Source: a virus
Taxonomy: Duplodnaviria; Caudoviricetes
DNA length: 57,011 bases
Direction: 5' to 3' (one strand)
IMG/VR virus record: IMGVR_UViG_3300044984_002188
Coordinates: 1-57,011 of that record
Positions 5,179-49,274 of this stretch are shown here, piece after piece. How positions within the stretch are numbered: position 1 is the stretch's first letter; each line of letters starts with the position of its first letter. The notes under the pieces are model-generated. The model saw nothing but the letters and a program-made list of their open reading frames with translations. It was not told the origin of the DNA and did not search any database. The position numbers and the translations under genes were made by a program.

Positions 5179-5442
5179 ATGTTTCAAAAGCCACATCCAT
5201 TTACAAATAAAAGTTTTATTTCTGAGTGTGTTGAATCTCCAACGGGTGAACGAAGTATACGAGTTTACCATAAAAAACTGAGTATCTACGTACCAAAGAA
5301 AGCACATATTCATGATCCTGTTGTAATTTTTAAATTAGCAGCATGGATGGTAAAAGCATCTGAATGGGTTTCAGAACAAAAACTATATGTTCCAACTAAA
5401 AAATGTTTAAACTCTCACAAGGGAAAAACAAAAGTAAAATGA
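5179..5442 (+). CDS. Hypothetical protein
   Basis: Stop overlaps the next ATG (ATGA). Confidence 0.65.
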   Translation: MFQKPHPFTNKSFISECVESPTGERSIRVYHKKLSIYVPKKAHIHDPVVIFKLAAWMVKASEWVSEQKLYVPTKKCLNSHKGKTKVK

Positions 5443-5702
5443 TTACTAAAACACTTAAAAAAGTTAAAGCCAAGAAGTATTACTACTCATTCGTCTACAA
5501 TCGTGGAAATTATTTTCAAATTTCTCGAGGACTAGAGAATCGTTACCCGAAGCAATTTATGGGTTCGGGTATGATGATGGGTAAGAATAGTTTTGATCTT
5601 GGCTTTGAATGTACTGCTCTTGAGTACAAGAAGATTGTTGCGTGTGCTCGTCGTCGTTATGGAAGAATTCAAAAAATTACAAGGAATCAAATTGACTACT
5701 AA
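5439..5702 (+). CDS. Basic hypothetical protein
   Basis: ATGA coupling to the upstream ORF. Confidence 0.65.
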   Translation: MITKTLKKVKAKKYYYSFVYNRGNYFQISRGLENRYPKQFMGSGMMMGKNSFDLGFECTALEYKKIVACARRRYGRIQKITRNQIDY

Positions 5703-5877
5703 AAAGAAAATTACCAAGCCTGCTCCTAGACGTTATACTCCATTCTTACCACCACAACGAGTAATGCATTTTCTTATTGATTTAAGCATTCTTGCTTTAC
5801 TTGTTTCGTGTGCTAGTTCTCTTGTTGTATTGACTGTGCAACTCTGTCAGAAGATTACCATTACTGTTGGAAAGTAA
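5692..5877 (+). CDS. Small membrane protein
   Basis: Probable TTG start; basic N-terminus then hydrophobic stretch FLIDLSILALLVSCASSLVVLTV. Confidence 0.55.
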   Translation: MTTKKKITKPAPRRYTPFLPPQRVMHFLIDLSILALLVSCASSLVVLTVQLCQKITITVGK

Positions 5878-5878
5878 T

Positions 5879-6421
5879 ATGACCACGTACTTCATTGGTT
5901 GCCCACACTTTGGACACGAAGCAATGTATCGCTTCGTTCGTGCCAATGGTGAAAAGGTTCGTCCATATGCATCAGCCGCAGAAGGTGATGCCGTTATAAT
6001 GGAGAATTGGAATAAGACTGTTTCCAAAGGTGACAAGGTGTATGTCATGGGAGATGTAGCATTCACACCCAAGGATCTCAAGATTCTTGAATCACTCAAT
6101 GGTTCCAAGATTCTTATCAAGGGTAACCATGACACTCTCGAACTTTCAAAATATGCCAAGTACTTTCGTGATGTTCGTGCTTATCACAAACTCGATAATG
6201 AAATTCTTTCGCATATTCCAATTCACCCCGTATCTCTGTGGAGAGCCAAGCGGAATGCATCTTGGCTAAATATTCATGCCCATCTTCATGCCGAAGAAGT
6301 GATGCTTGCAGAAGGAGTGACAGATCTGAGATATTTCTCTTGCTGTGTGGAGAGAATAGGGTATACTCCTATAAGTATTGATGAGATACGAAATCGTGTT
6401 GCTAAACTTCACTTAACCTAA
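5879..6421 (+). CDS. Calcineurin-like metallophosphoesterase
   Basis: CPHFGH, VMGDV, KGNHD, LSHIP, NIHAHLH motifs. Confidence 0.9.
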   Translation: MTTYFIGCPHFGHEAMYRFVRANGEKVRPYASAAEGDAVIMENWNKTVSKGDKVYVMGDVAFTPKDLKILESLNGSKILIKGNHDTLELSKYAKYFRDVRAYHKLDNEILSHIPIHPVSLWRAKRNASWLNIHAHLHAEEVMLAEGVTDLRYFSCCVERIGYTPISIDEIRNRVAKLHLT

Positions 6422-8130: not shown

Positions 8131-8177
8131 TATTTATATTAGATTATATTTGACATTAGAGTATTTTGAGATATACT
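8131..8177. promoter_or_regulatory. Divergent promoter pair: late (-) and sigma70-type (+)
   Basis: TATAAATA on -; TTGACA(8150)-16-TATACT(8172) on +. Confidence 0.75.
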
Positions 8178-8353: not shown

Positions 8354-8428
8354 GGTCCTATCGTCTAGCCTGGTTTAGGACCTGAGACTTTCAATCTCAG
8401 TACATGGGTTCAAATCCCATTAGGATCA
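8354..8428 (+). tRNA. tRNA-Glu (TTC)
   Basis: Acceptor GGTCCTA/TAGGATC; anticodon arm TGAGA-ct TTC aa-TCTCA; GGTTCAAATCC T-arm; no encoded CCA. Confidence 0.9.
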
Positions 8429-8430
8429 CT

Positions 8431-8619: not shown

Positions 8620-8624
8620 TATTT

Positions 8625-8697
8625 TGAGGGTTAGTTCAGTTGGTAGAACGTGGGACTTTGGTTCCCAATGTCGGGAGTTCGAATCTCTCACCCTCAG
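8625..8697 (+). tRNA. tRNA-Gln (TTG)
   Basis: Acceptor TGAGGGT/ACCCTCA; anticodon arm TGGGA-ct TTG gt-TCCCA; GTTCGAATC; no encoded CCA. Confidence 0.9.
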
Positions 8698-8710
8698 TTA
8701 AGGAAATAAT

Positions 8711-10146: not shown

Positions 10147-10154
10147 ATTATTAT

Positions 10155-10892
10155 TTATAAACTTAATCGTTTATCCTGTGTTGATTTAATATACTCATTC
10201 ATTTTATCCAAATAACCCCTATTTCGTAGTTCTTTGAATACCATATTCTCAATACTCACTTCTCCAGACTTTTTAAGTCCAGAACTTCTCATATTTCGAA
10301 TCTTTTCTTTCAATTTATCAAAAGATTCATCTTCAGCATTTGATGAAATTAAATCATCAATTTTTTCAATATATTCGTTAACCTTCTTTTCAATACTTGG
10401 ATCATTTAAATCTACATCTTGGTGTTTTGGTTCCGTGATCCATTGGTCATTAAGCACGCTATAAGCCCCCTGGTCAGGTGGTACGGCTTCTTTGATGTCT
10501 TGAGCGTATATTTCTACATCATGCCCTAGAATGGAAATGTCATGAGTTAAAGACCAAAGTTGCTTCTTATCTTTAAGATAGTCATCTATTAAATTTGGGC
10601 AATTATCAATTTTTCTTTTATCAACAAGAATGTGAAGATCGATATCTGAATAAGAAGTATATGCATAACTTGCATTACCACCAACTAGAATATAATCTTC
10701 TACTGCACTTTCTGGTAAACCAACCCATTCAACCCAGGTACTCCCAATTTCTAGAAGTTTAGCTTTAATATTCTTTTTTAATTGCATACCATCCCAAATC
10801 TTTGGATTTAGTTCATTATGATATTCAAGAGTTAAAGAAGTATTTTCTTCTAAGAATTGTTTAAAAGAAAGTATTTTATATTCTTTAATCAT
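10155..10892 (-). CDS. Nucleotidyltransferase (Pol-beta superfamily)
   Basis: LVGGNASYAYTSYSDIDLHILVD and a later VEIYAQD; N-terminal SFKQFLEE. Confidence 0.85.
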   Translation of the reverse strand: MIKEYKILSFKQFLEENTSLTLEYHNELNPKIWDGMQLKKNIKAKLLEIGSTWVEWVGLPESAVEDYILVGGNASYAYTSYSDIDLHILVDKRKIDNCPNLIDDYLKDKKQLWSLTHDISILGHDVEIYAQDIKEAVPPDQGAYSVLNDQWITEPKHQDVDLNDPSIEKKVNEYIEKIDDLISSNAEDESFDKLKEKIRNMRSSGLKKSGEVSIENMVFKELRNRGYLDKMNEYIKSTQDKRLSL

Positions 10893-12389: not shown

Positions 12390-12425
12390 AATACTATTTA
12401 TACATTATATTTCATCTATACAATC

Positions 12426-13424: not shown

Positions 13425-13438
13425 GAATAAATAATATT

Positions 13439-14727: not shown

Positions 14728-14810
14728 GCAAGAGTACTCAAGCGGTCAACGAGAGCAGATTGTAAATCTGCTGATTAATTTCTACGAAGGTTCGAATCCC
14801 TCCTCTTGCA
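14728..14810 (+). tRNA. tRNA-Tyr (GTA)
   Basis: Acceptor GCAAGAG/CTCTTGC; GCAGA-tt GTA aa-TCTGC; long variable arm; no encoded CCA. Confidence 0.9.
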
Positions 14811-21361: not shown

Positions 21362-21964
21362 TTATTTATCACTATTAAAATCCCCTTTATTACTGAAAGG
21401 ATTGTAAAGTATTAAATTTTTATGGCTTTTAGCTCTACCATTACTGACACGGTAGAGAGCCTTTGAACTTAAATTGTTGTTTTTAGCAAATTCTCTAACA
21501 TTATCTACAACAATTAGCTGTTTTGTGGTTATATCTTGAAAAACAACTCGTTTAGTTATTGCTATCTTTTGTGGTTTAGCTTTTTTAACTTTAAAGTGGG
21601 CACCCTCAGTAGATTTGGTAGCACGTATTTCTACAGCTGTCCATCCTTTATATGTTTTACGAGTTCCATTTAAAAGATCACATATTTTTCCGGATGTCAT
21701 TCCTTGTTCTTTAGCAAATTCTGCCATGTTGGTAAAGAATGTTTTTTCACCAGTATCGGCTCGTTTTAACCAATATCCATTCTTTTCATCTTCTGGTGGA
21801 ATCCATTGCCATGATCTACCATTTTGTTTAAAAAAACCACCATGTTGTGTAATAAATGCGTTTCTCTGGGTTGCTGCTTTGGAATTATCATTCATTTTAA
21901 TCCAAAGTTTACTTCCACGAGTATTAACAATTTGTTCTAACGATTTTATTTCATGATATTCCAT
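21362..21964 (-). CDS. Protein with two NUMOD1-like DNA-binding repeats
   Basis: NMAEFAKEQGM...LLNGTRKTYKGW and NVREFAKNNNL...VSNGRAKSHKNL. Confidence 0.7.
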   Translation of the reverse strand: MEYHEIKSLEQIVNTRGSKLWIKMNDNSKAATQRNAFITQHGGFFKQNGRSWQWIPPEDEKNGYWLKRADTGEKTFFTNMAEFAKEQGMTSGKICDLLNGTRKTYKGWTAVEIRATKSTEGAHFKVKKAKPQKIAITKRVVFQDITTKQLIVVDNVREFAKNNNLSSKALYRVSNGRAKSHKNLILYNPFSNKGDFNSDK

Positions 21965-24266: not shown

Positions 24267-26128
24267 TATTGGCCTCTAAGACGTTTAAGTTGATCATCAA
24301 TATCTGTTTTACTGCCAGGAGCAATTGAAGGTCTAGAAGTATTTGTTGTGCCCGATTTCATAATATCTGACAATAATGACGTTCCATATTCAGCTGGCTG
24401 TACTGGACCAGCTACATCTGCATCACCAGCTTTTCCTGGTACTGCTCTTTGTTGTCGTCTTTCTTGTTCTCTTTTTCTACCCTGTATAGCTTGGTCATCT
24501 AAGCTTCTTTGATTTTGTTCTCTTGCTCTTACATCAGCTCTACCAGCAGCAAGATTAGCATTATCACCACCTGTTGGGGTTGGTAAGAATGGTTCTGGGG
24601 CTGCTCTTTGCTCAGTACCACCTAACATAAATGGTACTTTTGGTTTTGGTGGACCCATCATACCAGGTTCAAATAGAGATGGTATTCTAGTACTATTTTT
24701 TTGTAGAGATGCTTTTAGTGCCGCAGCTTTATCTGCAGTTGCCTGTAATCTTCCTTGATTCTCTAAAGAACCTTGTTGTACTTTTTCTTTATTAATTTGA
24801 GACATTACTTGTGGCATTACAGAAGCTTTATCTTTAGCAATCTCTTGTGCTCGAATTTCTGGATTATTTTGGAAATCACTTAGTTCTTGAGCAGATATGT
24901 CAGCCTGACGTGTAAGTCTACCAGCTTCAGCTGCTCGTGCCTCACTAGCATTTCTTTGCAGGTTTATCATACTATCGGTTGACCCAGCAAGATCTCTAGC
25001 TTCTGCTGAACTATATCTACCAGCTCCAGCTTGTCTACTTACAAGAGAACTGTCTTCTCTATTAGTAGCATCATAATCTCTACCAGTATTTGACTTAAAT
25101 TCACCATAAGTCATATTGGTACCTTGAATCTTAACATTCTGCATTTTTTCTTTACGAGCAGCAGCTTGTTGTGCAGCATCTGCACGATTTTGTTGCTCTC
25201 TTTGTGTTACATCTCTTTGAGTAGCGTCTCTGGATGAAGCAAATGATGATTCAGTATCAGAATCAAAATAGGCTTTACTTCGAGTACGGGCAGCTGCTTC
25301 TTTTGCAGCTTCTTCTGGAGTTTTCTTTGCAGCAGCAAGAGCAGCAATGTCATCTTCCTGTTGGAAACTACTAATATTACTAGAAAGCTCCGAAGAAAGA
25401 GCTGGTTTACCTTGCATACCTGCAACTTTACTTCTAACAGTTGTTTCTAACTCAGCATTGGGTTTTGATAAATCTCCACCTCTCATCATTATTTTGGCTA
25501 ATGCTAATTCACCAGCATCTTTAGCACTTAATGTAGAAGGATCTTGAGCAGATGTTCTGGAAATAACATCTGCTATACGAGTTGCTTGCATTCTACCACG
25601 CTCAGAAGGATCAGTTGGACCCTGTTGTTTATAAGAATCAAGCTCTTTTACCTTATCTTCACGTTTTGTTTTTAATTCAGTTTGTTTTTTTAGATTTTCT
25701 TGATATTTTTCTTCATTTCTTGGATCACGATCTCTCCAAGCTGGACGCTCATCTTCTGGTCTACGTCTTGTAGAACCACTTGATGACGCACCGCCACCCA
25801 ATGAGCCAAATGATTGTGCTGGTGCTTCTGTTAAGTTAAATAAATTAGATGTAATGTTAGGAGACGATCCAACATTTCTTGGAGTTGCTTTTTGAATAGA
25901 ACTTTCATTCAAAGCAATGAGTGGTAATACACTATTTCTTATATCATCTGAGATACGTGGTTGTACCAAGTCTTTCTCAACATAAAAAGGAGAATTTAAT
26001 GACATAACTTTTGTAATGTCTTCCTTTAAGGTTGATGCACGTTTAACAGAATTGATGTCCGGATTCTTTGTTTTGGTTAAAAAATCCTTGACTTCCCAGT
26101 AAAATAGTCTATCTTGTTTATTATCCAT
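24266..26128 (-). CDS. Large helical/low-complexity late protein
   Basis: 620 aa; TCTAAATA at 26139-26146; several LxE sites near the N-terminus. Confidence 0.75.
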   Translation of the reverse strand: MDNKQDRLFYWEVKDFLTKTKNPDINSVKRASTLKEDITKVMSLNSPFYVEKDLVQPRISDDIRNSVLPLIALNESSIQKATPRNVGSSPNITSNLFNLTEAPAQSFGSLGGGASSSGSTRRRPEDERPAWRDRDPRNEEKYQENLKKQTELKTKREDKVKELDSYKQQGPTDPSERGRMQATRIADVISRTSAQDPSTLSAKDAGELALAKIMMRGGDLSKPNAELETTVRSKVAGMQGKPALSSELSSNISSFQQEDDIAALAAAKKTPEEAAKEAAARTRSKAYFDSDTESSFASSRDATQRDVTQREQQNRADAAQQAAARKEKMQNVKIQGTNMTYGEFKSNTGRDYDATNREDSSLVSRQAGAGRYSSAEARDLAGSTDSMINLQRNASEARAAEAGRLTRQADISAQELSDFQNNPEIRAQEIAKDKASVMPQVMSQINKEKVQQGSLENQGRLQATADKAAALKASLQKNSTRIPSLFEPGMMGPPKPKVPFMLGGTEQRAAPEPFLPTPTGGDNANLAAGRADVRAREQNQRSLDDQAIQGRKREQERRQQRAVPGKAGDADVAGPVQPAEYGTSLLSDIMKSGTTNTSRPSIAPGSKTDIDDQLKRLRGQ

Positions 26129-26168
26129 GGCTATGAAATATTTAGATTTTTATAAATACTTAAAAGGT

Positions 26169-26657
26169 ATGAATAAACAGGTTCTCTTGTTAAACCAAGA
26201 TAGTACACCCCTTAATATCATTACCATTAGTAAAGCCTTTAAATTAATCAGCCGAGACAAAGTTTGGGGCGATGCCTCAGATGAATTTATTGAAGTAGTC
26301 TCCGTATCTAAGACTATCAAAATTCCCAAAATTTTAATTTTAAAGTATTATGTAAAATTGCCTTTTAAAAAGGCTACTGCATCTAGGCAGAATATTTTAA
26401 GACGAGATCTGTATTGCTGCCAATATTGTGGAAAAGAGATGAATAATAAAGATGCTACTATTGACCATATTATACCTACCTGTAAAGGTGGAGCATCTTC
26501 TTGGGTGAATATGGTAGCATCCTGTAGAGCATGTAATTTATTTAAAGGAAGTAAAACTCCCAAAGAAGCCCAAATGGTTTTAAAAAATAAACCAAAAGAA
26601 CCTTCCTATGGATTCTTGTTTGAATCTATGCTAATTACCTTTAGAAAGAAAAAATAA
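26169..26657 (+). CDS. HNH endonuclease (McrA/HNH_5-like)
   Basis: VLLLN, RRDLYCCQYCG, TIDHIIP..KGG, WVNMVASCRACN; TATAAATA at 26151. Confidence 0.9.
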   Translation: MNKQVLLLNQDSTPLNIITISKAFKLISRDKVWGDASDEFIEVVSVSKTIKIPKILILKYYVKLPFKKATASRQNILRRDLYCCQYCGKEMNNKDATIDHIIPTCKGGASSWVNMVASCRACNLFKGSKTPKEAQMVLKNKPKEPSYGFLFESMLITFRKKK

Positions 26658-26962
26658 TGCCCAATTATGCTTTTAAGTGTGAAAATTGTGATCATGGCTT
26701 TGATGAAATGTTAAATCTTTCAGATAGAGATATTCCATTGACTAAACCTTGTCCAGAATGCAAACAGAAAAAGATTTTTAGAAATTGGGGTGCAAGCAAG
26801 CCAATTTTAATGGCAGATGCTACACTTACTCCAACAAAAGCCATGGGTAGTCAATTCAAAGAAGTTATTGATAAGATTAAATCCAATGGTCATGTGCCAA
26901 AGCGGTTTCATGAAAAATTGGATAATAGTCTAAATTCTAATGCTGGTAGAAGGCTACGTTAA
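26657..26962 (+). CDS. FmdB-family zinc-ribbon protein
   Basis: MPNYAFKCENCDHGF...CPEC. Confidence 0.85.
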   Translation: MPNYAFKCENCDHGFDEMLNLSDRDIPLTKPCPECKQKKIFRNWGASKPILMADATLTPTKAMGSQFKEVIDKIKSNGHVPKRFHEKLDNSLNSNAGRRLR

Positions 26963-27507
26963 GTTTTAGATTCTATCAAAGCCTTTAAAACATAATAACT
27001 ATCAATAACATCTGTAACAGGATTACTTAAAGTTTTTTGAGCGAACACTGATTTCAAATCAGTGTTTGTTTCTTTACTGAAGGTCTCATACATTACCTGT
27101 TTATCAGCGTTACCTTTGCCTGTGGCGCATTTCTTGACCTTAGACGGCTCTACGATGGTTACGGGAATGGCGTGCTTGTAGAGCTTGTATTTAAGAAGAC
27201 CCATGTTCTCAGCTAAATTGAATACTTTACCTTTAGCTCCATATGCATAACCTTCCATACCAACATCAGCTGCACCAATACAAAGATTGGTTGCCCATTC
27301 TGATATGGTGTCGAATCGATCTACGTCTTGTACATATTCCTGAAATGATTCACCAGTAATATTTGGTGCAATCTTATCAGCATATTTTTTAGTATTAGTA
27401 AGATAATAGAAAAAACAATTCTCAAACTTAAATGTCTTGCGTTCATCAAATAAACACAAGCAAGGGCAAGTTATAGAATAATCAATTCCTATTAACATAT
27501 GATACAT
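26959..27507 (-). CDS. RuvC-like Holliday junction resolvase
   Basis: IGIDYS, MEGYAYG, VKKCATGKGNADK, DVIDS. Confidence 0.85.
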   Translation of the reverse strand: MYHMLIGIDYSITCPCLCLFDERKTFKFENCFFYYLTNTKKYADKIAPNITGESFQEYVQDVDRFDTISEWATNLCIGAADVGMEGYAYGAKGKVFNLAENMGLLKYKLYKHAIPVTIVEPSKVKKCATGKGNADKQVMYETFSKETNTDLKSVFAQKTLSNPVTDVIDSYYVLKALIESKT

Positions 27508-27513
27508 TGGTAT

Positions 27514-28041
27514 TCAAGAAACTTTACCCACTTTTCTATAGTAGATATGTTCTGCCGTTATTGTTTGATTACCTGGTACAATATCATGTGTAACATTTAG
27601 AGCAGTTATGGCATTTGCTGTAGTTCCAGATAAGTCTGTTAAAAATGACTGTTTAACATAAGCAATGGTTATGATTTCCCAACGACCTTTTTCTGAACCT
27701 GGACCAGTATAAGGCAATATCACAGAACCAGTAACTCCAGTAAATGTTGGTTCGATATTTTTAAATACATCAATATAATAATTTGGAATAAAACCAGAAA
27801 TAAGATTTACACCAAAAGAGAAAAAATCATTATTTAAATATATGTGAGAGGCATAATCTGCAGTTATACCAGAATTATTAATATCGGATGGTGTACGTGT
27901 ATATAATTCTTTTGATAAACCAGATGCTGTTACGACTGCATCGCCAAGAAAGCTAGATTGGGTCACACCCGGTAAAGTATTTGTAATAGAATTTGAATTT
28001 GGAATAATTGCTCCAAAAATTCTAGTAGGAGCATATGTCAT
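27514..28041 (-). CDS. Putative virion structural protein
   Basis: T/S/G-rich composition; part of a late run. Confidence 0.6.
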   Translation of the reverse strand: MTYAPTRIFGAIIPNSNSITNTLPGVTQSSFLGDAVVTASGLSKELYTRTPSDINNSGITADYASHIYLNNDFFSFGVNLISGFIPNYYIDVFKNIEPTFTGVTGSVILPYTGPGSEKGRWEIITIAYVKQSFLTDLSGTTANAITALNVTHDIVPGNQTITAEHIYYRKVGKVS

Positions 28042-28044
28042 ATT

Positions 28045-29241
28045 TTAATTAATCCATTTTTGATATAAAGAGTTTGCTGATGCATTTAAATTATTTAGAG
28101 CGTTTTGTAAATAAGTAAAATCAATTTGAGTAGCTAAAGTCAATCCCTGATTAAGTGGATAATAATAATGATTTTTATCAATCAATCTATTTTCTAAATT
28201 ACCATATAAAGGTAAAGCATCTGTAACATAACATGGTCCACTCACAAATGCTACATTCCCACCAAAGACATCAACAATTCCCGCACCACCACTCGCTATA
28301 CTTGCTACAAAATATAAAGAATTATTTTTCATATAAAGGATCTGTGAAGAAGAATCTCCTGTCCAAACCGCTGCTGCTGTAACACCATCAATATAACGTG
28401 AAAAAATTCCACTAATTGTATTTGGAGAAATTATATAAGGATTATTTAAAAAACTGTAACCGGCTATTAGTTTTTGTAAAGGTATAATTTTATCATTTCC
28501 ATCCCAAAGATAGACATTAGTACAAGCAACAGATATTTGATTTTGATTTAGACCAATTCTATTATATTCAAAGGTCATTCCTTGATCTTTCATGTCTTGT
28601 ATTAATACAGACGGACTAATCTTTTTTGCTATTGGTTGGCTCATAGTAGGGCCAACTCCCATTAAATCCATAATACCATAATCATCAGTTAAAATTTGAT
28701 ATTGTGTTGATCCAGCTGCAAATCCAGGAATTTCTGGTGATCCTAAAAAATACTTTGGCTTATTGTATGCAGTAGATCCAGTTATTTGATTTAATGGAAC
28801 ACAATTATACATACCAGTATATGGTCCATATGAACAAAATCCAGATAAAGTATTATTCCAAAGAGTTAGTGATAATGCTGGATATGCTGTTGTAGTTCCA
28901 GTATATTTTGCAGTTGGATCAATACCAAATGCTCCAAAGGAATCAGAAGATTTATTTGGACTATAATGAATATTTCCGGATATTGTTTTATCCCCTATAA
29001 CAATATATAATGGGTTATCTTTTATATTATAATAATTTGGTAATGAGGTAATTCCAGCTTCAGGAGGAATTGGAATTGGTCCAGTACCCGTAAATGCTCT
29101 GTATCGTGGTATTACAGAAGCAAAATCTGCAGAAGCACCATATATTAAACTATTTGGATTTAATCCTATTGGGTATCCTATATTACCAGCCCCATAAAGA
29201 TAAATGTCATGAATTGTTGGGTCATAGTCTTTATAATACAT
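28045..29241 (-). CDS. Putative virion protein with a GDSS serine-protease-like motif
   Basis: 398 aa; WTGDSSSQILY. Confidence 0.6.
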   Translation of the reverse strand: MYYKDYDPTIHDIYLYGAGNIGYPIGLNPNSLIYGASADFASVIPRYRAFTGTGPIPIPPEAGITSLPNYYNIKDNPLYIVIGDKTISGNIHYSPNKSSDSFGAFGIDPTAKYTGTTTAYPALSLTLWNNTLSGFCSYGPYTGMYNCVPLNQITGSTAYNKPKYFLGSPEIPGFAAGSTQYQILTDDYGIMDLMGVGPTMSQPIAKKISPSVLIQDMKDQGMTFEYNRIGLNQNQISVACTNVYLWDGNDKIIPLQKLIAGYSFLNNPYIISPNTISGIFSRYIDGVTAAAVWTGDSSSQILYMKNNSLYFVASIASGGAGIVDVFGGNVAFVSGPCYVTDALPLYGNLENRLIDKNHYYYPLNQGLTLATQIDFTYLQNALNNLNASANSLYQKWIN

Positions 29242-29978
29242 TACATTTTAATCCAATTACCAGTTGTTCCACCAATTCCACCAGAATAAGAAAGAGGAAC
29301 TACTACACCTGGCAAAGTATTTATTGTCTCGTTAATCATATTAATATATTGTAACAAACTTAACATAGTAGATTCTCTTGCAAAATCTATAGTTGGATCA
29401 CTTGCAAGAACTGATGCACCAGGAATATTAATTTCAACATTTTTGCCTCTTTGTGTTACTGTAACACCATCACCTTTAATAATTAAATCGTTTACAGATC
29501 TTAGAATAGATTTTTTATTTCCATTAGAATCTACAGTTTTAATTCCTACAGCACCACCACCACCAACAGAGTTGTGGGACATAAGATTGGAACTTGTTAC
29601 TTTTTCAACAGTATTTTGTACTAACGTTGCAGCTTGACTAGTTATTAAATTTATTAATTTATTATTATCAATTGTTATTTTACCATTAACTAGTACTAAT
29701 GGATCAGAAACTTCTAATTGTTCTAATAAAGATTTTTTTTCTATAGGTTGTTCTAATTTGATAATCTGTTTTAATGTATTTTCAGAATTAACATTAAAAA
29801 ATCTATCTGTGGTTTTTTTTAAATCTTCACTTAAAAATGTAAGTGGTTTTAAGCTTTCCAAATAAGATAACTGATTCTCTCTTTGTTGCTTTTTCTCTTC
29901 CAATTTAATCTGTTCGGTTACTTGTTGGGGAGTTTTATGAATAAAAGTATTTGAAAATGTTTGTTTATCTTTTGACAT
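29241..29978 (-). CDS. Putative virion structural protein
   Basis: TATAAATA at 29991; coiled coil followed by GGGGAVG and a fibre-like beta motif. Confidence 0.65.
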   Translation of the reverse strand: MSKDKQTFSNTFIHKTPQQVTEQIKLEEKKQQRENQLSYLESLKPLTFLSEDLKKTTDRFFNVNSENTLKQIIKLEQPIEKKSLLEQLEVSDPLVLVNGKITIDNNKLINLITSQAATLVQNTVEKVTSSNLMSHNSVGGGGAVGIKTVDSNGNKKSILRSVNDLIIKGDGVTVTQRGKNVEINIPGASVLASDPTIDFARESTMLSLLQYINMINETINTLPGVVVPLSYSGGIGGTTGNWIKM

Positions 29979-30002
29979 GGTATACAAACATATTTATACC
30001 GT

Positions 30003-30090
30003 GGTCAGAGATGATGGTTCCTTAGTAATACGATGGAGTATACTTCGAATGTCACCAAAAGAATTACGAGGATTAACCATCACCTCTGCC
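30003..30090 (-). ncRNA. Candidate ~88-nt rod-like hairpin RNA
   Basis: On -: CAGAGGUGAUGGUU pairs with AACCAUCAUCUCUG (14 bp, one G-U); inner UCCU/AGGA and GUAAU/AUUAC stems; TCTAAATA late promoter 5 nt upstream. Confidence 0.6.
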
Positions 30091-30146
30091 TAAAATATTT
30101 AGAATAAAAAATACCCTTGCGGGGATTAATTATTACAGATTTGAAA

Positions 30147-30218
30147 CTCCTCGGGCTGGACTCGAACCAGTAACCGTTCGCTTAACAGGCGAATGCTCTA
30201 CCATTGAGCTACCGAAGA
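30147..30218 (-). tRNA. tRNA-Asn (GTT)
   Basis: Acceptor TCTTCGG/CCGAGGA; TTCGC-ct GTT aa-GCGAA; GGTTCGAGTCC; no encoded CCA. Confidence 0.9.
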
Positions 30219-30225
30219 ACGTGAT

Positions 30226-32115
30226 TTACACTATCTGACATCCACCTGCACTACAGGCAAACTCCTTACCAACTTCTGTATTATCTTCTGACTCATACTT
30301 CATGAGATCATTAAAGTTAACCTTGACCTTTGGATGTGCTGCATATGTTGCAGAATCAATTTGTTCAAACGGTGCCTGAGCATATGTATGATTATCACTT
30401 CCAGGAAGGAATGCAATACCTGTTGCCACATCAAAGTTCTCCCACAACCAATTGCCTACTTCAAGGAATTCACTATCCTTATAGTTGACGGTAATGGAAG
30501 GCTTGTGATGACAGTAATGCTCTTGATATGTTTTCCACAGATCAAGATGGTCAAGTGCACGAAGATCTTCTGTAGTAACAGTACCACGAGGAGCCTTCAT
30601 TGCAAAAGTAAATACGGCAGTAGAAGTTGGGTTTATCACATCATCCTCACACGGGACTCCTTGATCCTTCATCAAGTTATATAAAGGATCTTTCTTGTCC
30701 AGACGAATTCTGCGGAAATAATAATCCGCATAGCGTGGATGTAAACCCGAAGCGGAATCCACCAAGCAAGAAGTAGTGCCTTCTGGCTTGACGCAAGTGA
30801 TTGACTTGCTAGGATTAATACCCAACTTCTCTGCCCATTTGAGATTTGTAGCCGTTGCATGGTCACGAAGATTCTCAAGAAGTCGAACTAATTTTGGCTT
30901 ACCGTCAAGACCACTGGTAAGTTTATTATCAAAAATTCCTGTCATAGAAACACCAAGCAATCTTTCCTCTTCACAGTTCTTCTTCCACTCAGGACGAAGA
31001 TAAGGAAATTTTACAAAAGTAGATTGCACAGTCCCAATAATAGTGGCAATTTCAATCTTCTTCTTTAGGCTGGCTGCGGTATCATCGATACGAACTACAA
31101 CAGTTGAAAGATTACAAAATTCAAAGGGTCTTAGAATAATTTCTGCACATGGATTGGTACCATATTCACAGTTTTCCTCTCGTCCCCACTTCGCTGCTTG
31201 CTCCTGTAGAGCCCTACGATTGATCATGCCGCGTTCTCCGCTGTGAGAGTTGTACAGAGAGGTCCACTCCTCAAGAAACTGTCCCATGGGGGGTCTACCA
31301 CGATAAACCGCTGAATTATTAGCGTAAGACCGGAATCCGGCTTGTTCCCACCACGCACCTGACTTACACATGGCAATTTCACGGTCTCCCAGGTCACTGA
31401 GAGAAATCATGGCTGATCTACGCACTCCACCAACGATTACGGCATTCGCAATGGCACAGCAGGTGTCATGGCATTCAAGAGCCGAAAGTTTACGTCCTTG
31501 TGCGTTATAGAAGACCTTGACCAAAAATTTGAATAAATTGTCTAGGGGAGCAGGACCAGAAGCACGACCACCAAAAGTCTTGAGTCGTGCACCAGATGGT
31601 CGAACCTTTGACAAGTCCCACTTAGGATGTTTACCGGAATAGAGGTCATCGAATAAGGTTTTGAGAGCATTCCCCCAACCTTCCTTTGAATCTTCAACAA
31701 CGATTACCTTATCAAAATTTTTTACAATCTTGTTAGCAACAGTTGGAAGTTTATCGGTGTATTGACGTTCTACAGAATATCCTGTACCTGTTCCATTCAT
31801 GAGAATGACGAACAGTTCTGCAAATGATTCAATAGAATCAATTGGAAGATATGAGCAGTTGTATAAACATGTATTATCGTGATCAAGAGCAACACCTGCA
31901 GTCATTAAACTTCTCATGGAAGGAAGAACTTCAAGATTTAAAATTGCTTCTTTGACATCAGGTCTTTCGGCTAAAGTAGGAACCTTATCGGTGAAATAAT
32001 TCCACCAACGGTCTACACATTCATCCCAACTCTCGCGGCGATTCTGTGAAGGAAGCCAACGAGAATAACGAGAAATAAAAATAAAAGATTGAAACGGTGA
32101 TAAAGCATCTGCCAT
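30226..32115 (-). CDS. nrdJ: Class II (B12-dependent) ribonucleotide reductase
   Basis: YNC, VGGVRRSAMI, TNPCAEI, TCVKPEGT, C-terminal CSAGGC. Confidence 0.93.
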   Translation of the reverse strand: MADALSPFQSFIFISRYSRWLPSQNRRESWDECVDRWWNYFTDKVPTLAERPDVKEAILNLEVLPSMRSLMTAGVALDHDNTCLYNCSYLPIDSIESFAELFVILMNGTGTGYSVERQYTDKLPTVANKIVKNFDKVIVVEDSKEGWGNALKTLFDDLYSGKHPKWDLSKVRPSGARLKTFGGRASGPAPLDNLFKFLVKVFYNAQGRKLSALECHDTCCAIANAVIVGGVRRSAMISLSDLGDREIAMCKSGAWWEQAGFRSYANNSAVYRGRPPMGQFLEEWTSLYNSHSGERGMINRRALQEQAAKWGREENCEYGTNPCAEIILRPFEFCNLSTVVVRIDDTAASLKKKIEIATIIGTVQSTFVKFPYLRPEWKKNCEEERLLGVSMTGIFDNKLTSGLDGKPKLVRLLENLRDHATATNLKWAEKLGINPSKSITCVKPEGTTSCLVDSASGLHPRYADYYFRRIRLDKKDPLYNLMKDQGVPCEDDVINPTSTAVFTFAMKAPRGTVTTEDLRALDHLDLWKTYQEHYCHHKPSITVNYKDSEFLEVGNWLWENFDVATGIAFLPGSDNHTYAQAPFEQIDSATYAAHPKVKVNFNDLMKYESEDNTEVGKEFACSAGGCQIV

Positions 32116-49252: not shown

Positions 49253-49274
49253 GTTTTAATATTTATGTCAGATT

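Follow-up and report, generated by a model that had tools for sequence, protein, structure and literature searches.

A covarying hairpin between late-promoter-like boxes as a candidate RNA family of T4-like lake-water phages

Does a short gap between a tRNA gene and its downstream neighbour encode an RNA, and would such an RNA act on its own or as part of a longer message? This question is raised by a 57-kb viral contig (IMG/VR record IMGVR_UViG_3300044984_002188), which has a completeness estimate of 34% and whose 57,011 nucleotides are called the window below. On its minus strand, an 88-nt element that folds into a hairpin (positions 30003–30090) lies between two boxes resembling T4 late promoters, and it had been proposed from the sequence alone to be a late small RNA beside a tRNA-Asn gene (the original prediction). 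We found the minus-strand sequence, its coordinates and both boxes exactly as quoted there, with the first box, P1, reading TCTAAATA at 30096–30103 and the second, P2, reading TATAAATA at 29991–29998. Judged from its fold, from covariation among related phages and from a strand test, the hairpin is very probably a real, selected RNA structure of the minus strand. As to its role, the reading that we favour, with a probability of roughly 0.45, is that the element may form a cis-acting, protein-recognised domain at the 5′ end of a late operon mRNA.

Fold, covariation and strand of the hairpin

The minus strand of 30003–30090 folds into a long irregular hairpin with a minimum free energy of −30.7 kcal/mol (z −4.43), and none of 200 dinucleotide shuffles was as stable. 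The stable fold that had been predicted was thus recovered. Its closing stem consists of 15 pairs (2 + 13), one of them G·U, and a single A bulges out on its 3′ side; nested inner stems of 4, 5 and 3 pairs stand above it. The total helix has 27 pairs in the window's own fold and 24–29 pairs in the consensus folds of relatives. The plus strand of the same positions is nearly as stable (−29.2 kcal/mol, z −4.30). Since both strands fold almost equally, the window alone cannot fix the strand, and the single G·U pair that had been put forward in favour of the minus strand is by itself weak evidence; it is the relatives that decide.

A scan of the viral collection with a 16-mer of the stem returned 27 loci, nine of them true homologues, and a scan with a 19-mer of the loop gave the same nine contigs. 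The element shows 99% identity among ten close copies, compared to 82–92% for the surrounding 400 nt, and both flanks have been replaced in some of these copies. Furthermore, a protein search with the ribonucleotide reductase (RNR) encoded upstream of the element found 542 relatives, from which 80 loci with an RNR identity of 83–99% were kept for analysis. The first covariance model was built from the ten close copies. It matched 59 of the 80 loci, once each and always on the strand of the RNR gene (24 distinct sequences), and it also gave five weak echoes on the reverse strand. The hairpin is non-coding in 32 loci, which form five subgroups of substantially divergent sequence, and weaker matches in 27 loci fall inside an open reading frame (ORF) of 265 codons in the same slot. 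When coding and non-coding versions were put into one MAFFT alignment, the outer stems were misaligned, and RNAalifold recovered only 4 pairs from it. Therefore, the two kinds of version were analysed apart and were combined only on a model-fitted alignment.

When the 18 distinct non-coding versions were aligned with MAFFT, RNAalifold recovered the hairpin unprompted, with 24 pairs, 8 of which have compensatory changes. Counted over this alignment, 99.1% of 432 cells are paired, compared to 90.9% in column shuffles (0/500 reach the observed value), and pairing falls to 30–56% when the partner is slid by one to three columns. Changes on both sides were found in 9 of the 24 pairs, with 44 double-change cells against 13.5 in the shuffles (0/500). 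One pair of the middle helix is A-U, G-C and U-A in six sequences each. With a second model and 38 distinct versions, 96.6% of 988 cells are paired, both-side changes are present in 17 of 26 pairs, and 156 double-change cells compare with 45.1 in shuffles (0/500); this model-fitted alignment is biased toward the structure by construction, which the MAFFT alignment is not. The sequences share ancestry and the shuffle counts are therefore not probabilities, but the case is still strong, given the controls with slid partners and how many independent pair types occur. The compensatory changes in homologues that had been named as a check on the original prediction are thus present.

The same alignment of 18 versions bears on the strand. 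Of the 432 cells, canonical pairs fill 428 when the RNR strand is read and 395 when its complement is read, and 36 G·U cells stand against 3 A·C cells. This excess of G·U over A·C indicates that the folded molecule is the minus-strand sequence, as RNA or, less likely, as one DNA strand. The choice of the minus strand was therefore right, on evidence that comes from the relatives.

From base to top, the element has an outer stem of 12–15 pairs, a bulge of 3–6 nt on the 5′ side, a conserved UCC/GGA helix, a freely covarying 5-bp helix, a pyrimidine-rich internal loop, an apical stem of 4–5 bp and a loop of 10–14 nt. Three motifs in unpaired or edge positions are almost invariant in the 38 distinct sequences. 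These are CUUUUGG (30055–30061), which runs from the internal loop into the apical stem and whose columns are at least 75–95% conserved, UCGAAGUA in the apical loop (30041–30048; columns at least 95% conserved), and CAUCG (30031–30035) on the 3′ side of the apical stem and the internal loop.

Two other identities for the hairpin were rejected. An intrinsic (Rho-independent) terminator does not fit, because the sequence 3′ of the stem, ACGGUAUAAAUA, is not a U-tract; no U-tract or terminator-like site was called in 29700–30400, and the sole site called in one of the relatives, locus L019, lies 5′ of P1. On this point the original prediction had been correct. It had also described the gap as free of ORFs, which does not hold strictly: it is overlapped by a 38-aa ORF on the plus strand (29977–30093) and by the next gene in its TTG-extended frame. 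Neither frame is conserved, and the plus-strand ORF begins in a flank that relatives have replaced. A small protein-coding ORF was rejected on similar grounds, since the element is 89, 90, 91 or 92 nt long among the subgroups of relatives, which leaves no common reading frame, and the start is not conserved, an in-frame ATG being limited to the window's own subgroup.

The hairpin is single copy, with one in the window, one in each of four large related contigs and no additional copies in any of them. The pattern of loop motifs matched 80 loci of the viral collection (31 distinct), every one of them in the slot of the hairpin. Among bacterial and archaeal genomes it occurs at 20 places, about the number expected by chance from rough arithmetic, and the full hairpin was found at none of these 20 (best score 18 bits, local). 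A search of the window from 29500 to 30700 against Rfam 15, with E up to 10, returned only the tRNA and two chance snoRNA matches (14.5 bits, gathering threshold 40), and in five divergent relatives (34,132 bases) none of 16 Rfam matches overlapped a hairpin. The absence of a known family from these searches agrees with the novelty that had been proposed.

With respect to the source, 14 lake-water DNA sequencing runs hold at least half of the window's sampled words, and six metatranscriptome runs also match it with small shares. The DNA polymerase of the window is gp43-like, with its best matches in T4-like cyanomyoviruses (41% identity), and genes for a UvsX-like recombinase, a gp41/DnaB-family helicase and a primase are arranged as in T4. 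By these sequence comparisons, the element is a new RNA family that is so far confined to one clade of uncultivated T4-like lake-water phages.

A hairpin-homologous segment within a protease gene

The 265-aa ORF that holds the weaker matches in 27 of the 80 loci encodes a lipoprotein-type signal peptide and a Pfam Trypsin domain (residues 75–249, E 2.8e-11). The segment homologous to the hairpin lies in frame at about residues 36–63, between the signal peptide and the Trypsin domain. The conserved loop motifs are still present in it, as is an outer stem of 14 bp rich in G+C. No other nucleotide stretch of the gene is as conserved (identity 0.77–0.93, compared to about 0.65 elsewhere), among versions that are about 65% identical as proteins. 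The same P1 box stands at the head of the protease gene, whose stop codon falls within a AATAAATA box just 5′ of a gene for a RuvC-like Holliday-junction resolvase. We note that this trypsin-like lipoprotein gene, present at 5368–6165 of locus L040 and in 26 other loci between the RNR/tRNA unit and the resolvase gene, is not in the window, and that it is unusual for a T4-like phage to carry a protease that is secreted or anchored in the membrane.

Both the hairpin form and the protease form were found in both RNR clades (98% and 89–91% identity to the window), which implies that both alleles are ancient and have passed from one background to another. In a close pair of relatives with one form each, the two sequences match in order from the tRNA across the terminator to P1, and once more where P2 leads into the resolvase gene. 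The start of the protease ORF, its first 30 nt, also bears a resemblance to the 5′ half of the window-type hairpin (shuffling p ~0.002; 10-nt identity). The simplest history would be that the non-coding form is a protease gene that lost the part for the signal peptide and the protease domain and kept the hairpin. A deletion between direct repeats as the route is only hinted at, and two candidate repeats of the protease gene were not significantly alike (p 0.1–0.6). A −1 frameshift site before the embedded hairpin was rejected by eye, as the A-run of the L073 type lies directly against the stem and out of a slippery register. Whichever way the change went, the RNA (or DNA) structure is selected independently of coding.

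Late-promoter-like boxes and neighbouring genes

A P1 box precedes the stem in all 33 non-coding copies (the window and 32 loci) and reads TCTAAATA in 3, TATAAATA in 8 and CATAAATA in 22 of them. The late promoter is given as NATAAATA in T4-like cyanophages and as TATAAATA in T4 (PMC2984593). The spacing from P1 to the first paired base is 5 nt in 29 copies and 6 nt in 4, and in the window the box lies 5 nt 5′ of G30090, the first paired base. T4 late transcription starts about six bases after the promoter box. With this rule, the spacing places the predicted start of the transcript at the foot of the stem, near the first paired G, as had been claimed. In addition, a homologue of gp55, the T4 late sigma factor, was found in three of five related contigs searched, the three largest (E ~1e-18), and none was found in the window's own partial contig.

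P2 lies 4–5 nt 3′ of the hairpin in 32 of the 33 copies, with the gene start 3–14 nt past the box; in the window it lies 4 nt 3′ of the hairpin and 12 nt 5′ of the next ATG. In seven loci P2 reads TATAGATA, so that the downstream gene there probably depends on P1. The original prediction had taken the second box as a sign that the hairpin is a separate unit. This argument is weakened by the TATAGATA reading of P2 in these seven loci, by the lack of any site that would end a transcript after the hairpin and by the protease form, in which both boxes are already present, one heading the gene and the other at its stop, so that the tandem layout can be inheritance and not design. In the window as a whole we counted 25 NATAAATA boxes, 15 of which are 5–26 nt 5′ of a start codon on the same strand. 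The bare 8-mer TATAAATA is not enriched (9 found, 7.1 expected), and it is the placement that is telling. At nine genes, a NATAAATA box lies only 5 or 7 nt before the start codon (for instance at 8131–8138, 10152–10159, 12395–12402, 13426–13433 and 49260–49267); if transcription starts about 6 nt past the box, these nine late mRNAs would be leaderless or have leaders of 1–2 nt.

Upstream of P1, the minus strand of the window carries a small CCCC-GCAA-GGG hairpin followed by a T6 run (30106–30124), which by its sequence and its alignment to relatives appears to be a weakened copy of the terminator at the end of their RNR-tRNA unit. Relatives have a terminator-like hairpin 5′ of P1, and the 7-pair version in L019 was called as terminator-like. 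The copy in the window was not called because one G is missing compared to the relatives. Read-through from the RNR-tRNA unit may therefore be higher in the window phage.

The conserved upstream anchor of the locus is the gene for a class II (B12-type) RNR of 629 aa on the minus strand (30226–32115; phrog_367, E 2e-169), and the best phage DNA match is annotated as an adenosylcobalamin-dependent RNR. In the stretch of the T4 record that was examined, an anaerobic nrdD/nrdG pair is annotated instead. The tRNA-Asn (GTT) gene follows on the same strand (30146–30219; ARAGORN, Rfam tRNA 63.2 bits), and 55 nt with the terminator-like hairpin and the promoter box separate it from the element. In the relatives, the interval between tRNA-Asn and P1 is empty, is taken up by an HNH endonuclease gene (about 370 nt) or holds 0.9–2.6 kb of other genes. 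Small HNH genes with their own terminators were seen in this interval in L013 and L003 (140-aa ORF), in L040 (4971–5321) and in others, and HNH-like genes also lie 5′ of the resolvase gene in relatives without the hairpin; the window itself has HNH genes at 21362–21964 and 26127–26657. Its other tRNA genes, for Glu, Gln and Tyr, are on the plus strand at 8354–8429, 8624–8698 and 14728–14810, distant from the hairpin.

The link to tRNA-Asn that the original prediction had drawn was not borne out, given the 0.4–2.6 kb between tRNA and element in relatives and locus L023, which has no tRNA at all. From the arrangement of these loci, the proximity of tRNA-Asn is incidental, and the element travels with the second late box and the operon of the RuvC-like resolvase. 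The RuvC-like gene starts about 15 nt 3′ of the hairpin in 27 of the 32 related non-coding loci; in the other five, an inserted cassette (four) or a gene for a 630-aa protein (one) took that position. In the window the resolvase gene (minus strand, 26959–27507; phrog_159, E 4e-29) has likewise been displaced. A cassette of three genes on the same strand, encoding proteins of 245 aa (29241–29978, with its ATG at 29978), 398 aa and 175 aa (both within 27514–29241) and without Pfam or PHROG match, has entered the RuvC-like gene at its fourth codon, and it re-uses the leader and the second ATG that belong to the RuvC-like gene in relatives. Only some relatives have this cassette; it was also found in L039, L051, L109 and L115, at 57–87% identity.

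In L019, L060 and L075 and in the window (27496–27507), the RuvC-like gene offers two ATGs in the same frame, at a distance of nine bases (MYTM... or MFHM...). The first is 3 nt and the second 12 nt past P2, and hairpin-less relatives have a single ATG at 5 nt. This suggests that transcripts from the two boxes might use different start codons for the RuvC-like protein. T4 gene 49 is likewise annotated with two nested products.

Possible roles of the element

If the element is a cis-acting 5′ domain, P1 would fire late and the first transcribed base would be the first paired base. As no terminator stands behind the hairpin, the transcript would run on into the operon that ends with the RuvC-like resolvase gene and that is headed, in the window, by the inserted three-gene cassette. 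The base-paired 5′ end could then shield the message from 5′-end-dependent decay, the irregular helix of about 27 pairs could serve as a processing site, or both, and the invariant loops would be bound by a specific protein partner. We favour an action in cis because in 27 of the 80 loci the homologous hairpin is part of an mRNA, because each contig has a single copy, and because the P2 box and then a gene start directly follow the hairpin, with the RuvC-like gene in this position in most of the non-coding loci. Known hairpins of this kind are the 5′-terminal stem-loop of the E. coli ompA leader, an mRNA stabiliser, and the intergenic hairpins of T7, which are RNase III sites; both depend on shape and not on sequence. 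The element resembles them in its stem at the predicted first base, in its long irregular helix and in its position at the head of an operon, and both the window and the consensus folds of its relatives provide the length of about two turns that suits RNase III. It differs from them in its three nearly invariant unpaired motifs.

Several observations weigh against this reading. A generic 5′ stabiliser or RNase III site needs no invariant loop sequences. When the P1 transcripts of the window, L019, L060 and L075 are folded, the hairpin pairs only with itself and leaves the next gene's start region outside, so that no direct translational control is visible. P2 is intact in most copies, and a transcript bearing the hairpin could thus be redundant for the downstream gene. 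In eight more distant loci the RuvC-like gene stands behind a box without any hairpin, and the element is therefore not needed for expression of that gene as such. The start at the stem foot is taken from the general T4 rule, and P1 of the window (TCTAAATA) differs from NATAAATA at the second base. Finally, contigs from four metatranscriptome runs map only to tRNA-like pieces (with loose ends from other organisms) and to parts of the RNR gene, with none on 29500–30146, a result that is uninformative either way.

A rival reading, in line with the original prediction and with the near-invariance of the loops, is a free-standing, trans-acting late small RNA of about 90–95 nt with paired 5′ and 3′ ends, whose 3′ end would be made by processing in the A/U-rich stretch directly 3′ of the stem and whose loops would bind or titrate a host or phage factor. 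We consider this less probable than the cis-acting domain and rather unlikely overall. The stem starts at the predicted first base in 33 of 33 copies, the box right after the hairpin could serve the next gene alone, and the structure has been kept after the surrounding coding sequence was lost, all of which would suit such an RNA. However, no terminator or U-tract would end it, the pre-existing boxes of the protease form leave the tandem layout without need of a functional explanation, P2 reads TATAGATA in seven loci, and a translated region, where the homologue lies, is an odd place for a trans-acting RNA. In addition, no transcript of the window carries the complement of the loop motifs: TACTTCGA occurs twice in the window (1.0 expected), once in the element itself and once on a non-coding strand, and CCAAAAGG occurs once (2.2 expected), so that complements are not enriched. 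We hold it similarly doubtful that the hairpin works late as an RNA in its own right, acting in trans or as a decoy for a protein, and is so constrained in sequence and shape that it has persisted either embedded in the protease frame or, once the coding parts on both sides were gone, as a stand-alone transcript.

An element acting as DNA seems improbable to us. It could be a strand-specific single-stranded hairpin or a cruciform for replication or recombination, for example as a substrate or loading point beside the resolvase gene, or it could be a junction for cassette exchange. Its single copy among replication and recombination genes and its conservation whether coding or not are in line with this, as are the exchange implied by both forms in both RNR clades and the gain or loss of cassettes on both sides (HNH or 0.9–2.6 kb upstream, the three-gene cassette or the gene for the 630-aa protein downstream). 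The 36:3 excess of G·U over A·C, on the other hand, is what RNA or a single DNA strand would give and a symmetrical cruciform would not, and a junction role explains conserved sequence but not compensatory pair changes. The PeSL cassettes of T4-type phages, a precedent for such a junction, are promoter-terminator stem-loop units between exchangeable genes (PMC4122927). Like the element, a PeSL is a small conserved intergenic block (terminator, promoter, stem-loop) with variable flanking genes; unlike it, PeSLs have many copies per genome and early promoters, whereas the element has one copy, late-type boxes, a long covarying hairpin and invariant loops. We rejected an assignment to the PeSLs, as only the variable flanks agree. 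The least probable explanation is that the element has no function of its own, being what is left of a decaying protease gene or an inverted repeat that arose by chance. The homology to part of that gene and a reading frame that is, by eye, open in several versions would agree with a remnant, but the compensatory changes in 9 of 24 and 17 of 26 pairs, the 99% identity among close copies whose flanks diverge, lengths of 89–92 nt that shift the frame between subgroups and the lack of a conserved start codon would not. The selection of the structure independently of coding likewise disfavours a dead remnant.

Known small RNAs of T4-type phages offer partial parallels. RNAC and RNAD are late small RNAs of the T4 tRNA region whose roles are unknown (PMC3014915, PMC9697503), and they are a precedent for a free late RNA. 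These stable RNAs (species 1 and 2) are, like the element, small and structured and lie near a tRNA gene. However, T4 rnaD and rnaC abut tRNA-Arg with gaps of 1–6 nt, whereas the element is separated from its tRNA, by insertions of up to 2.6 kb in relatives; in addition, the predicted fold of rnaC ends in a T-arm-like hairpin (5-bp stem, 7-nt loop) that the element does not have. The fold of T4 rnaC (L038, 1909–2047) has a z of −4.6, and T4 rnaD is no more stable than its shuffles (z −0.8). Homology was rejected: over T4 69000–75000 with filters off, the best match of the element's model (7.5 bits, E 1.4) lies off rnaC and rnaD, and the analogy that the original prediction had drawn to these RNAs thus found no support. 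Membership in a tRNA processing unit of the rnaC/rnaD type was also rejected, in view of the 55-nt gap with its terminator-like hairpin and box and of L023, which lacks the tRNA.

Leader hairpins with late promoters are described for the T4 genes e, soc, 49 and I-TevI, of which 49 encodes a Holliday-junction resolvase (PMC3014915). They share with the element an RNA hairpin and a TATAAATA-type late box just 5′ of a gene, and T4 gene 49 adjoins an RNR gene, as does the resolvase locus of the element. In the inhibitory leaders of T4, a helix sequesters the Shine-Dalgarno sequence or the start codon, and the late promoter lies inside the structure. The element, by contrast, closes on itself and ends 4–5 nt before P2, with the start codon unpaired and 15–27 nt beyond, and a late box also precedes its whole hairpin. 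We rejected an inhibitory leader of the T4 type, as the folds of the four P1 transcripts leave the start region free. A further non-coding RNA of a T4-like aquatic phage is CfrI of cyanomyovirus S-PM2, whose function is unknown (PMC2984593). CfrI is an antisense RNA that spans psbA and a homing endonuclease gene over about 225 nt; the element is an 88-nt sense RNA with a single hairpin, in an unrelated context.

According to a 2010 review of post-transcriptional control in T4, neither a trans-acting regulatory RNA nor a riboswitch of this phage had yet been characterised in function, and RNAC and RNAD are its two small RNAs (PMC3014915). The element is a new candidate regulatory RNA from the T4 superfamily, with good comparative support, a defined promoter context and loops that imply a partner. 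As far as the sequences tell, its kind is already known, that of a phage leader or small-RNA hairpin, and what is new is that the same structure is found both in frame inside a protease gene and free-standing. The family is ready for Rfam-style curation and marks a hypervariable junction beside the resolvase gene in abundant lake phages. Its protease-embedded form is a natural experiment on how constraints of RNA structure and of coding coexist, and on how a structure is kept through gene loss. If the RNA is functional in its own right, it would be a documented viral case of an RNA function outliving or predating its host gene.

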